NCBI GenBank assembly: GCA_965612865.1
Contig: CBFDTJ010000038.1
Location: 1-13,999, forward strand
Reading direction: 5' to 3'
From: an uncultured bacterium
GTDB taxonomy: Bacteria; Caldisericota; Caldisericia; B22-G15
Length of the DNA: 13,999 bases
Below, in pieces: positions 1 through 9,000 of this stretch; within the stretch, counting starts at the first letter, position 1; the number at the start of each line of letters is the position of its first letter. The position numbers were made by a program.

Positions 1-3000
1 AAGACGGCATACGAGATCATGCCTAGTCTCGTGGGCGCGGAGATGTGTATAAGAGACAGAGAATAAAGAGATTTCTTGCGTTGTTTAGGTTTACAAACTG
101 AAGATTTGAAAGTCCTACTGCAGCAATTAATCCAAAGAGTCCAACGTACATTGCACCTACTACTGGTTGTGGAAGCGTTGCAAGAACAGCACCAACTTTT
201 GCAATGATTGGAATTATAATCATAAGGGTTGCACCTGCTCTAATTGCCCTACGGGATGCAACTCTTGTAATTCCTATTGCTCCGATGTTTTCAGAGTAAG
301 AGGTTGTTCCATTTCCGCTCTGAAGAATTCCTGCAATAAGGCAACCAACTCCCTCTGCACCAAGACCATAGGAAATCATCTTTTCAGTTGGAACAGGTGC
401 CTCGGAAATTCTTGCACAGGAGTAGTAGTCTCCAATGGACTCAACCATAGATGCAATATAACCTGCAAGCATTCCTATGGTGGCGGAAAGAGTAAGAGAT
501 GAAAGCTCTGGGAATCCCCACTTAAATGGAATTATTGGTTTAATCCAGAACCATGGAGAATTCTTAATTAATTCGAGTCCTTTGGTTAAGTTTGCTGCAT
601 TGTCAGGTGGAATCCAGCCAGCGAGTGTTCCAATAAGTGCAGCAATCCATCCTGTTGCAATAGCAAGAATAACCGGGAATAATAGGAACACCCTTGAATA
701 TCTTGAGAAAATCTGAGAGTAAACAATAAGTGCAACGAGAGTAATGATTGAGATTGTCCAGTTAGATGCCATATATGGGGCACCAACTCCATAGAGTGAA
801 AGTCCTATCATTGTAATTGTTGGAGCAATTGCAAGAGGTCCAATTGCTCTCTTTACATAACCCATTAATCCACTGTAACCAAGAATAATTTCAAAGAATG
901 AACCAAACATGATTGCAGCAGCAACCTGCTGAATCATAATCTGCCAGTTTCCGCCCTGGGCTGAAACCATACCAATGGTAGCAAAGGTTGGTCCAAGGAA
1001 TGAGAAACTACCGCCCTGAACAATTGGGAGCTTGTTTCCAATTGTCTGCTGAACCCATGTTGCAAGTCCACTTGCAAGGAACACTGTAGAAATTAAAAGA
1101 GCAAGCTCTTGAGGTGGAAATCCCATTGCGCCACCGATTAAAAGTGGAATACTTACGGTAGCGCCAAACATTGTTAGATAATGCTGAAAACCAAGTACGA
1201 ATGCTAATGGCCATTTCGGCTTACTTCCGATTGGGTAAAGTACCCAACCTGTTACACGCCAATCAGTAGTTTGAGTCTGCTCATTTGCCATTTTTGCTTC
1301 CCTCCTTCAAAAAATTGTTTTTGAAAAATTGAACTGGAAATTTTGCCGTCCTCTCTCAACCTCCTTTCATAAATTATTTCTTTGATAAGATTTTATAAAA
1401 ATAAATAGAATTTGTCAAGTACTTATATTTATATTTCTTTAATATCCTCCTCACCCTCTATCTCTCTAACTTTACTTTCTCCCCCATGCATCTCAACATA
1501 AAATATCTTGTCTCCTGCCTCCATAAGAATTCTGTCATGGGTTATAAGAATTATTTGCCTTTTCAGTACCTCGCTCACTTTTCTCAAGAACTCCACCATC
1601 GCTCTTTTGCTTCTCTCATCAAGGAATGTAAGAGGTTCATCAAGAATTAGGGGCCCATCAAGCTTCGGATTTACACTTTTCTCAAGAACACTGATTCTTA
1701 AAGCCAGGGATATAATCTGGGATACACTTCCACCGTGTATATCTACAGGGTTCCCCTCAAAAATTAGATTTTCGCTTAAGTTCTTTACAACAAACCTTGC
1801 TGTATTTCTATTCCTTTTATCTTCCAGCTCTATTCTAAAGCTAAGATCTTTATATATTGGTTCAAGTGCTTTATTTACCAGTCTCTCAATACCACTCATT
1901 GTCTCCCGTCTCAACTTTTCATATGCTAATTCAAGTACTCTCTTTGCTTGGGTGTATATCCTTTTCCTATTCTGTAAATCTTTTAATAATTCTTCCCTAA
2001 TATTTATTTCCTTTTCTATTCTTTGCTTTTCACCTAATCGTTTTTCTACCTCCCTTATTCTTTTAAAAACTGCCTCATTGATCTTTTCTATTGAGTTCAT
2101 TATCAATCTCCTTCAGAGACTCCTCTATCATCATTTTTTTCTTTACTATCTCCTTCTCAATTCTTTCTATCTCTCTATCCAGTTCTTCTATACTATTGAT
2201 ATTAAAATTCTCCTTGAGCTCCTTTATAATCTCGTCCTTTGCATTTTTCAAGGCATTCAAAGTTCCAGTTATCTCCTGCCTTTTTTCAACATACTTTTTA
2301 ATCCTTTTGTTTAGTTCATCAAGTTCCTTTATAATCTTTTCAATATCCATATTTACCTCCACATCCTCTTTATGTTTTTCTTCACTTCCTCCATCAACTT
2401 ATTATCCACTTCTCTTAGACACACCGGGCAAACTCCCTCTCTTCTTATAACGGAAACATACTTTTCTATAAGCTTATTTATGGTAGTTTCTATTTCCCTT
2501 TTTTCTTCTTCCTCCTTTTTCTTCCTTTCAATGATATTTTTTAATTCTAATTTTTTGTTTTTAAAAAAGATATAGCGTTCCTTTAAACCATTTATCTTAT
2601 CTACAGTCTCTTCTTTAACAATATCTTTATTTAACACTTTATATAACTTCTCAAAATTTTTAATCTTATATTCATTGTCGGTATAGTTACGCTTAATCCT
2701 TTTAAATTCATGCAGTCTGAGCCTCTCATTCTGTACCTCACTCATAATCTCATTTATTTTCTCCACCTTATTCAGTGCTTTAAATTGATCTTCAAGAAAT
2801 TTCAATTTTTTATCTATATCTTCTAATCTCTCCTTCAGATTTAAGAGTCTCTCTTTTTTAGTGTAAAGATTCTTCAAGTTCTCTGCTTCACCCTTCAAAA
2901 CTAACAGTTTGTCTCTCTTTTCATCAATTCCTTTAAATTCTTCGAGTGAAGTTTTGAGGTTTTCTATCTCTTCTAAGTTCTCTTTCTCTTTCCTCTGAAT

Positions 3001-6000: not shown

Positions 6001-9000
6001 AGCAAGTGAACGGAATATATAAAAAAAGTTTGGGTAGTTACCACCCATTTTCATAAGGGATCCATCAATGAAGAAGGGAGAAAAGTTAAATTCACTTTTT
6101 TCTTTCACAGTTTCCTTTGATTTCAAGACATCCAGAACAACGCTATCTCTTAAAAGAATACTCTCTTTAAGTTTTTCATTTAAACCACTGAATTTCCTTT
6201 TAAAATCATCAAGATTTTTTATAAATTCTTTCCCTTGCCTCTTCATATCTCCTCAACGCCTCTCTTCTTACCACCTCATCCACGTCTTCATTTTTAGAAA
6301 TCATCTCTATTATTTTTTCTGGATCAAAACTTGCATTCTCTCTCTCTGTAAGAGAGGAAAAAAACTCTCCAAAGAGAACTCTATCAATATCATTTAACTT
6401 CTTACTCTCAATTTCTTCCCTTTTTTTTACTCTTTTAAGTTTTATTAATTTTGGTTCCACTTTTGTATTTTCAATGGTTAACAATACGACCTGTGGAATT
6501 CTATCAAATTGAGTTATACTATCCCTGGCAACACTTCCTGGAGATATAAATATTTTTCCATTCACTCTTCTTACTCCATATCCATCATGATAGTGACCTA
6601 CAAGTATTATATCTGCTTCGGTAACACCTGCCACTTCTTCCAGTGAAAGACACGAAAAATTTGCCTTAAATGGTAGAACATAGGAATGTACCATTTCTAT
6701 TGCAATAAGATTCATGTTTCTCTTCTCTATCCTTAGAAAATCAGGATTCTCATCAACACCATCTCTATAATTAACCCCATGTATCTCAATCTCTGTATCA
6801 ACTGGAGGAAAAACTTCACCATCCTTTAGAAACTTAACAACACCAGCCTCCTCGAGTATTTTTGCCGACTTTCTGTTATAAGTTTCAGGATTCCTCCCTT
6901 CTATGTCATGATTTCCCAAAATACTAATTATAGGTCTTGCATTAAATTTTTTTAATGTTTGAATAAGTTTAATTACAACTTCGTCACTGGGAGAAGGACG
7001 AGAGAACCAATCTCCACCAAATAAAACATAGTCCACATTATTAGAATTAGCTATTTCTCCTATCTCCTCAATTTTTTCAAGAACTGACATAAGAAAATTA
7101 TCCTTCCTGGATGAAAGCTCTTTGCTTTGAAGATGAGTATCCGTGAAATACAGGATTTTTCTCATATTTTTATTATACCTCACAAAAATTGTATAATTCT
7201 CTTTGAGGTGTTAAAAATGAGAGTAGCAACAGTAGAAGAAATGAGAAATCTTGACAGAGAAGCAGTTGAAAGGTTTGGAATTCCTGAAGAAATGTTGATG
7301 GAAAATGCAGGAAACAGTGTTTATTATGTAATTTTAAAGGAGGTAGGGGTAAAGAACAAAAAATTTATTGTAGTATCTGGCACAGGAAACAATGGTGGTG
7401 ATGGATTTGTTGTGGCAAGAAAACTCTATTCTCAAGGTGGTCATGTAAAGGTCTTTGTATTTGGGAATATAGAAAAAATTAAGGGCGCATCTAAAAGAAA
7501 TCTTGAGATACTCAAGGGTATGAATTTGGACATTTCTTTTAACCAGGAAATTGAAGTTTTTAAAGATGCAGTTAGGAATTCTGATGTAATAGTGGATGCG
7601 CTTTTGGGAACAGGGATATCAAGAAAGATAACAGGTATCCTAAGGGATGTAATAGATATTATAAATAAAAGCGGAAAGGCCGTCGTTAGTGTGGATATTC
7701 CTTCTGGTGTCAATGGAGATACTGGAGAGATTATGGGAACATCTGTTAAAGCAAATTATACAGTAACTTTTGGTCTTCCAAAAGTTGGAAATATCTTTTA
7801 TCCAGGTTTTTATTTTAATGGAAAAGTCTTCTTATCACATATTTCCTTTCCTCCAGAACTTTACGAGAAAGAAACAATAAAGCTCTTTATAAATGAAATA
7901 CTTCTTCCGCCCAAAAGAAAGGAAGATGGTCATAAAGGGGATTTTGGAGATACTTTATTTATTGCCGGTTCGAAACTTTATTTTGGGGCTCCAGTTTTCT
8001 CCTCACTTTCTTTCTTGAAATCAGGGGGAGGATATTCAAGACTCGCTACAGTAAAATCTATAATTAACTCTGTCTCTCAACAAGCAAGCGAGGTTGTATT
8101 TATACCTCTTGATGAAACTGAGGAAGGTTCTTTATCTATAAAAAATCTGGATAAACTTATTAATATCTCCAAAAAGGTTGACTTTGTAGTGATTGGTCCA
8201 GGACTCTCCTTAAATCAGGAAACCCAGGAACTTGTGAGAAAGTTTGTAAAAGCGGTTGAAAAACCAATTCTTATTGATGGTGATGGATTGACTGCCATCT
8301 CCAAAAACTTAGAAATTTTATTGGAGAGAAAATGCCCTGTAATCTTAACTCCGCATCCAGGGGAAATGAGTAAACTTGTTTCTCTTCCAAAGGATGAAAT
8401 ATTGAAAGATAGGATTAAGATTTTAAGGGATTTTACCAAAAAATTTAACTCAATTATAGTTTTAAAAGGTGCCCATTCCTTAATAAGTTATCCAGACGGA
8501 AACATCTTTATAAATGTTTCTGGAAATTCTGGAATGGCAACACCTGGATCTGGAGATGTTCTCTCGGGAATTATTCCTGCAATGTATGGGATTGGATTTA
8601 ATATAGAGGAAGCTGTAAGAATGGGTGTTTTTGTTCATGGATTTTCTGGTGATCTTGCAAGAGAAACTATTGGAGAGGACGGAATTACTGCAAGAGATAT
8701 AATGAATCATATTCCTGAAGCAATGAAAAGATTAAGAGATGATTTTTTATCTGTAAAGGAGAAATACAAACTTATAAATTTCATTTAAGCTCAACCTACA
8801 AGGAATTCTAAAATAAAAATTGGGTGCGGATGGTCGCTATTTTCTTTTTTCCTCTATTTACCCTAAGGTCGGGCTCCCCTCGACCCCGCACCCAAGTATA
8901 TTATAACAAATTCCAGCACCTATTCAAATCTAAATCCTTTTTTAAAAAGTCTAATACAAGCTTCAACTACCTTAGGATCATACAGTATTCCTTTGTTCTT

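Follow-up and report, generated by a model that had tools for sequence, protein, structure and literature searches.

The window analyzed here, a 13,999-nucleotide stretch of contig CBFDTJ010000038.1 from an uncultured bacterium, carries on its minus strand an mre11-nurA-herA operon in which Rad50 is encoded by three separate genes, and this three-gene arrangement is real and conserved. From sequence and structural models, we estimate a probability of roughly 60% that the locus supplies the cell's Mre11-Rad50 and HerA-NurA machinery for DNA-end resection in recombination, with a Rad50 assembled from separate chains whose arm is tiled by copies of a small subunit.

The genes follow one another in the order mre11-like, nurA, herA, Rad50 N-half, small gene and Rad50 C-half, all on the minus strand. 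The Mre11/SbcD nuclease gene (6209..7165; 318 aa from ATG, with an alternative GTG at 7183) encodes a product that matches Metallophos (E = 1.7e-14), has Mre11_Sulfo as its top NCBIfam match, under the cut-off, and contains the DTH, GGD, GNHD, MVH and GHYH motifs of the partner nuclease. The NurA nuclease (5284..6246; 320 aa) matches PF09376 above the cut-off (E = 8.8e-13) and carries IDGS and MDGS motifs, while the HerA ATPase/translocase (3512..5287; 591 aa) matches DUF87 (E = 3.8e-21), contains Walker A, Walker B and ATQRP motifs and has archaeal repair HerA as its top NCBIfam match, under the cut-off. The Rad50 N-half (2353..3522; 389 aa) matches AAA_23 (E = 1.9e-16), and the C-half (1429..2100; 223 aa from ATG) matches Rad50_Sulf (E = 1.1e-13); between them lies the gene of the small arm subunit (2075..2350; 91 aa from ATG). 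With mre11, nurA, herA and rad50 clustered and their catalytic motifs present, the locus has the composition of an archaeal-style resection operon. The three Rad50 reading frames adjoin or overlap one another. Promoter and terminator scans at the locus scored no better than chance level.

The genome-wide survey's note had placed a three-gene Rad50 behind mre11-nurA-herA and regarded the split as conserved rather than as an assembly error, and both statements hold. In each of the five sister-genus loci retrieved, all three reading frames are whole and follow herA as they do here (389/92/223 aa; one of the five is listed with longer upstream starts), at identities of 41-46% for the N-half, 42-52% for the small protein and 57-62% for the C-half; in two same-genus loci the small gene and C-half are complete and the N-half is truncated at the contig end. 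Gene order varies in relatives, with N-small-C, N-mre11-small-C and N-small-C-mre11 each represented, and genomes with a lone C-half encode mre11-N-small elsewhere in five of five tested, the two halves lying about 1.09 Mb apart in one of them. An assembly error, a pseudogene, or recoding or protein splicing that restores one chain is extremely improbable. The adjoining or overlapping frames would suit such an origin, and the contig ends carry what we take to be sequencing adapter, so the assembly is imperfect; however, the same breaks recur in independent genomes, the best 150 C-half relatives are all 144-368 aa long, other genes or the 1.09 Mb interval separate the parts in relatives, and the small gene has its own GGAGGT ribosome-binding site (2355..2360, minus strand), which overlaps the last codons and stop of the N-half. 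The rearranged and unlinked forms in particular refute a single chain broken by error, decay or recoding. Intein families gave no match, and a split intein or recoded gene does not fit junction gaps that vary and genes that intervene. The terminal residues described in the survey's note as invariant are indeed so, W-R-stop closing the N-half in all six family loci listed, but these codons spell the GGAGGT of the small gene, so that their invariance need not reflect protein function.

Together, the two halves contain the elements of a Rad50/SbcC ABC head: the N-half has Walker A (GRGNRGKT at residue 30) and the Q-loop, and the C-half has Walker B (LILDE at 151), the D-loop, the H-loop and a return helix. 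The N-half runs from an ABC N-lobe through an outgoing arm helix to a terminal zinc hook and a short return helix, with helices modeled at residues 158-194, 199-296, 305-362 and 374-388. Its family profile finds archaeal Rad50 and the hook structures 1l8d and 6zff as top matches, and the top PDB matches of the C-half are likewise archaeal Rad50. The putative hook is a CPVC motif (2419..2430, minus strand; residues 365-368) placed 21 residues before the C-terminus, at the arm tip, and a C-terminal CxxC occurs in 258 of 266 complete triples. No hinge family match was obtained, and separate RecN-sized and RecF-sized frames exist, which sets the protein apart from hinge SMC proteins, RecN and RecF.

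Walker A was found in 252 of 266 N-halves, and the Walker B DE is invariant. The signature, also listed as invariant in the survey's note, is so, but it is non-canonical: the C-half reads HGGSV at 122 instead of LSGG(E/Q), and glycine replaces the signature serine in 216 of the 218 sequences parsed (of 322). The D-loop aspartate is serine in 282 of 322 relatives, with aspartate retained in the C-half studied here; these two substitutions may alter ATP turnover. They would suit a complex in which the halves assemble and the small protein, which lacks a fold match, acts as a chaperone or regulator, or one that serves as a poorly hydrolyzing DNA-end sensor or tether rather than as a resection ATPase, and the accessible part of one source describes Rad50 relatives repurposed for defense (PMC12663957). 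Such a role is unlikely, given the retention of Walker A, the invariant Walker B DE, an intact linked Mre11, recA next to the genes in 48 of 53 GTDB loci and the lack of any other SbcC match in five genomes of the host's family.

The arms of Rad50, SbcC and SMC proteins are single chains that fold back on themselves. Here no single chain could fold back in this way, the parts being encoded by three genes that are rearranged or unlinked in relatives; instead, the N- and C-halves very probably pair antiparallel in trans, forming the ABC head plus the initial ~60 residues of the coil. An antiparallel band of co-variation between the two halves (z 10.3) appears separately in two subtypes (z 6.0 and 6.7) and ranks first of 113 in the pooled anchored analysis (z 9.7), so that the antiparallel coil that leaves the head in Rad50/SbcC is found here between chains. 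In this pairing, C-half residue j would lie opposite N-half residue ~221-j. The anchored analysis, like the tiling, swap and charge/volume analyses below, covered length classes other than the host's own (10 rows).

Past these paired residues, the N-half would continue to its C-terminal CxxC hook as one helix built from 47-residue repeats. In the host the arm repeats span 2488..2928 on the minus strand (approximately residues 199-345), with a first unit of 54 residues followed by units of about 47. Across the family, the N-half has autocorrelation maxima at 47 and 94 (39 of 105 proteins), and hook distances form a ladder near 147/194/236-250/297/344; both are independent of the repeat segmentation, which was seeded at 47, so that its count of 486 of 585 steps at 47 is not. 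While the N-half arm lengthens by 47-residue steps, the small protein and C-half keep constant lengths (rho with hook distance 0.16 and -0.07, respectively; n = 79). A rho of 0.64 that would point to tracking was rejected as an artefact of subtype profile length (68-73 aligned residues).

The small protein is modeled (pLDDT 87.6) as a 47-residue helix (3-49), a loop and a second helix (55-89). Helix 1 has the length of one arm repeat and resembles the N-terminal helix of the C-half, its G29 aligning with G23. Its relatives match phrog_18563, of unknown function, in 59 of 86 rows; there was no specific Pfam match, nothing at E 0.001 in fold searches of PDB or BFVD, and only hypothetical-protein clusters in the ESM Atlas. 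Its ribosome-binding site is stronger than that of the C-half in 60 of 79 loci and than that of the N-half in only 44 of 79, and is therefore only a faint hint that the protein is made in more copies. The survey's note had taken the protein for a single coiled-coil spacer leading from the hook to the C-half, which the lengths do not support. A 1:1:1 complex in which one small protein completes the return strand in line, as the order N-small-C of a seemingly cut single chain would suggest, suits the shortest arms (17 of 257) but leaves more than 100 residues uncovered in the other 240 (median 171; 125 in the host, against a protein of 91 aa); since small-protein length is also independent of arm length, such a spacer is very unlikely.

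The proposal that copies of the small protein tile the distal arm is moderately supported by co-variation and modeling. Each distal repeat would be covered antiparallel by helix 1 of one copy, so that arm length would set the copy number, at 2-3 per arm in the host and about 4-5 in Clostridia; helix 2 may overlap the neighboring unit, two arms may be joined through Zn at their hooks, and Mre11 would sit on the arm root. Distal repeats and helix 1 share a band at -9 (z 5.0) that none of 60 permutations reached (maximum 4.1), with a second band at +39, one repeat further. Taken one at a time, repeats 2 and 3 have their maxima at one shared register, and a joint model retains both; negative controls and swaps with near relatives both stayed at or below 2.9, and in 10 of 12 split halves the band placed among the top two of 188. 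Most of the signal is due to phage subtype B (4.3, as against 1.1 for subtype A by itself), repeats 4 and beyond score 0.2, helix 2 gives no co-variation signal, and the single-repeat tests are marginal, being reached by 1, 2 and 3 of 30 permutations. A register of -2 had been predicted beforehand and was not the best band, the observed signal lying one heptad off. For the small protein, twenty-letter co-variation did not yield a clear band in the mixed two-subtype alignment, by subtype or when anchored, and a charge/volume complementarity test was uninformative, having missed its own positive control.

A different arrangement would place the distal repeats of two N-halves in a parallel, hook-capped coiled coil whose junction is clamped by a single small protein. 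It accounts for an arm of variable length with constant partners, the 47-residue steps follow from tandem duplication alone, and since repeats within one protein are alike, a signal at one site may be echoed at others: neighboring repeats show position-by-position co-variation (z 6.1), and the repeat-3 signal could echo repeat 2. We consider it possible but rather doubtful, in view of the register kept at both repeats in the joint model together with the +39 band, the hydrophobic profile common to first and distal repeats (r 0.77), and the one-repeat length of helix 1 and its likeness to the antiparallel-pairing helix of the C-half. For the tiled arm, a predicted complex of N-half, C-half and two small proteins scored 0.38 against 0.00 for the best control and 0.00 when the N-half was replaced, with contact agreement of at least 61% and partner pLDDT of at least 72 across runs, and no contacts were obtained from this prediction. 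Among solved pairs, 116 of 157 attained the mark, against 2 of 215 mismatched ones; because scores up to 0.60 include just 18 solved pairs and both mismatches, 0.38 lends the complex weak support.

Archaeal Mre11-Rad50 with HerA-NurA (Pyrococcus, Sulfolobus, Methanocaldococcus) likewise unites four activities in one operon and has a CxxC hook, whereas here the host is bacterial, Rad50 comes in three chains with the hook near a C-terminus and an arm of 47-residue repeats, the signature serine is glycine, and NCBIfam scores all fall far under the cut-off. Bacterial SbcCD (E. coli, B. subtilis) also combines a zinc-hook ABC ATPase with a calcineurin-like nuclease, but in its known form the ATPase is one chain of ~1,000 aa. 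The Rad50-derived defense ATPases Lamassu LmuB and RloC share CxxC, SMC-like character and small partners; in the accessible part of PMC12663957 they are single-chain ATPases with a toxic effector, and no effector is linked here. Phage proteins of the same family have a three-part layout too: BC1852/BC1854/BC1855 of phBC6A51, gp32/34/35 of vB_BboS-125 and gp8/7/5 of 0305phi8-36. The Bacillus phage versions, which the survey's note called two-piece, are three-piece. The phage proteins fall into PHROGs 16465, 18563 and 15167 and are annotated separately as exonuclease, hypothetical protein and ATPase; the accessible part of PMC3175470 remarks only on the absence of one ATPase segment from 0305phi8-36 gp8. 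In a natural three-chain Rad50 with an arm in whole 47-residue units, the arm's length, its continuity and the number of subunits could each be altered independently, which bears on how arm length and continuity transmit signals between hook and head; if the tiling is true, arm length changes by 47-residue units without a matching change in the return strand. No description of a three-gene tiled Rad50 was found in the literature searched, which excluded Iyer et al. 2004 (FtsK-HerA) and Krishnan et al. 2020, the latter reportedly a classification of ABC ATPases.

Beyond the host's family, the three-gene Rad50 occurs in several gene orders: many Bacillota carry it at their recA-rny locus, and hundreds of viral contigs encode it as well. 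Linkage to nurA-herA is uncommon, seen in 3 of 53 complete GTDB loci in a survey that set aside 790-aa "herA" matches; NurA is encoded elsewhere in four of five genomes tested, and the viral loci listed lack nurA-herA. The 790-aa matches resemble FtsK in size and sequence. In five genomes of the host's family, the three-gene Rad50 is the only SbcC/Rad50 detected: neither full-length SbcC nor AddA was found above the cut-off, and TIGR00618 (SbcC), positive in 12 of 14 controls, gave no match; two smaller AAA_23 frames in the host's own genome were judged by size alone. The operon may be the main resection machine of this family. We slightly favor the broader view of a modular SMC-family arm, built from a repeat helix and a variable number of small-subunit copies, that serves as the family's sole Rad50/SbcC within an archaeal-style HerA-NurA operon and may derive from phage. 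The best known matches of both halves are archaeal, yet their nearest sequences are from Bacillota and phage, and in an unrooted C-half tree built without archaeal sequences the host's family falls outside a cellular clade of 33 and beside two viral sequences (support 0.79-0.84).

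The splitting of Rad50 into separate genes is real and widespread, and represents an apparently unreported form of Mre11-Rad50. In the window, mre11 (6209-7165), nurA (5284-6246) and herA (3512-5287) lie on the minus strand, their products with intact motifs, and share this strand with three Rad50 ORFs of 389 aa (2353-3522), 91 aa (2075-2350) and 223 aa (1429-2100). Pfam and NCBIfam models assign the 389-aa product to the N-terminal part of Rad50 (N-half) and the 223-aa product to its C-terminal part (C-half), with scores far under the full-length cut-offs. The best structure matches of both profiles are archaeal Rad50, with hook structures matched by the last part of the N-half in profile comparison. 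The signature Ser is replaced by Gly, and the D-loop Asp is kept in the window and missing from most relatives, so that ATP turnover may be altered. The nurA sequence contains a hairpin with a T run that resembles a terminator (6031-6047, minus strand); hairpin counts for this region are at chance level.

The genome-wide survey's note had described the three-ORF layout as conserved and not an assembly error, and both statements hold: the layout is whole in 5/5 sister-genus loci, is broken only by contig ends in two same-genus loci, and appears rearranged or unlinked in further relatives. The close relatives are Caldisericia according to their source labels, and the C-half occurs in 9 of 93 genomes of the phylum, 8 of 9 in the window's own family and one outside it. 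The C-half profile recovers 309 clusters below 1e-30, the best 150 representatives all measuring 144-368 aa; one pattern retrieved 336 relatives on GTDB genome contigs (80 of them fetched), and one viral scan yielded 445. Of 300 genomes drawn from the class to which an Acetivibrio genome belongs, 17 have such a relative. The N-half is present in 53 of the 80 GTDB loci, 52 of which also have the small gene (the counterpart of the 91-aa ORF), with recA (48), rny (46) and only three times nurA-herA as neighbours. A lone C-half occupies 26 of the 80, adjoined by folD in 24 (Acetivibrio and relatives; L066, L069, L075, L080, L089 and others); mre11, N-half and small gene stand together elsewhere in 5/5 such genomes tested, ~1.09 Mb from the C-half in Pseudobacteroides. 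Across 145 viral loci, the order N-mre11-small-C is commonest (102), followed by N-small-C-mre11 (18); a profile seeded from genes adjoining C-halves finds the small gene at 211 of 218 unique viral C-half loci, and all three parts are present in three records from cultured Bacillus phages or prophages. Given this spread, the varied gene orders and the unlinked parts, artefact, decay and recoding are excluded as the source of the split.

Some loci depart from these layouts. Mre11-N-half fusions (707-772 aa) with a separate C-half occur in phage loci L040 (2468-4777), L124, L128 and L140; the small gene is separate there, none being detected in L140. Unrelated genes, one annotated as AP2-domain, separate N-half and small gene in two Bacillus phages (L038:4134-4706; L039:4290-4592), and in a Mahella locus (L117:7757-7845) 87 bases without a small gene separate the halves. 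PMC3175470 describes the 0305phi8-36 fusion as lacking one ATPase segment; we find this segment as gp5, three genes further on.

Co-variation over 191 locus triples of the three parts (126 effective) indicates that the Rad50 halves pair in trans. An antiparallel band between the proximal N-half arm and the N-terminal helix of the C-half (i+j ~221, z 10.3) ranks first of 113 in the pooled set and is found again in each of two subtypes run separately; the C-half therefore covers only N-half residues of ~160-220.

The survey had read the small protein as a single coiled-coil spacer, which fails on arm length. Head-to-hook distances fall in fixed steps (~147, 194, 236-250, 297 and 344), with arm autocorrelation at 47 and 94, and neither the small protein (77-100 aa) nor the C-half (200-249 aa) tracks them in length. 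The C-half helix and post-hook tail leave 84-278 arm residues without cover (median 171; 125 in the window), the remainder being 100 or fewer in just 17/257 arms. The most likely mechanism, with a probability of about 0.55-0.6, is that several copies tile the arm, helix 1 of each lying antiparallel on one distal 47-residue repeat; if true, this is the surprising part. The modelled small protein comprises helix 3-49, a loop and helix 55-89, helix 1 being as long as one arm repeat. Helix 1 aligns with the C-half helix, Gly on Gly, at a probability of 66%, spurious matches being possible between coiled coils. Two small-protein subtypes differ by a loop offset of 7 residues, which recurs in the first arm repeat (54 vs 47) and the C-half N-terminal helix; the window's protein combines long helices 1 and 2.

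In 247 triples anchored on arm breaks and Gly (10 rows of the window's length class dropped), distal repeats and helix 1 co-varied, in a reduced alphabet, along the antiparallel band -9 (z 5.0, matched by 0/60 permutations), with a second band one repeat further on. Repeats 2 and 3 individually peak at -9, also in the joint model; negative controls and swaps between near relatives each reached up to 2.9, and the band was first or second of 188 in 10/12 split halves. The register predicted beforehand, -2, lies one heptad away. Full-alphabet runs for the small protein gave no clear band; no tiling signal came from subtype A, from repeats 4+ or from helix 2, and a charge/volume test failed its own control. 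One complex prediction of N-half, C-half and two small proteins scored 0.38 vs 0.00 for the best control, with contact agreement of at least 61% and partner pLDDT of at least 72, individual contacts not being displayed. The mark is passed by 116/157 solved and 2/215 mismatched pairs, but scores of 0.60 or lower account for just 18 of these solved pairs and for the two mismatches, so that the prediction lends weak support to this assembly. Split-gene halves can pass through resemblance to solved Rad50, although the partner scored has no solved relative.

In the established archaeal pathway, breaks are opened by Mre11-Rad50 and resected by HerA-NurA, and by analogy the same division would apply here. 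In five family genomes (own 87.6% complete, the others 99-100%), neither SbcC by TIGR00618 nor AddA above cut-off was detected. No AAA_23 frame long enough for SMC or SbcC was seen in G000, G003, G005 and G006 of the family (longest 573-580 aa), and SMC, judged by frame length, may be absent from the family. In an unrooted tree of 185 C-halves, the family lies outside a clade of 33 cellular sequences and adjoins two viral ones with modest support; a phage source is possible. Literature searches, including passages of PMC9960219, PMC3175470, PMC7824862, PMC9389158, PMC12663957, PMC13685816, PMC13748450, PMC12474458 and PMC6690015, turned up no account of the three-gene form or the repeats; Krishnan et al. 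2020, Iyer et al. 2004 or their supplements may mention the split or a bacterial operon.

Elsewhere on the contig, both ends (1-60 and ~13930-13999) resemble what we take to be Illumina adapter, so that false C-termini result for the permease (23-1291) and for the ORF at the other end (12331-13998). An NAD(P)HX repair enzyme (7127-8788, plus strand) diverges from the operon, and a 1103-aa protein (8920-12231, minus strand) resembles, by eye, PAS/GGDEF/GAF/HD-GYP.
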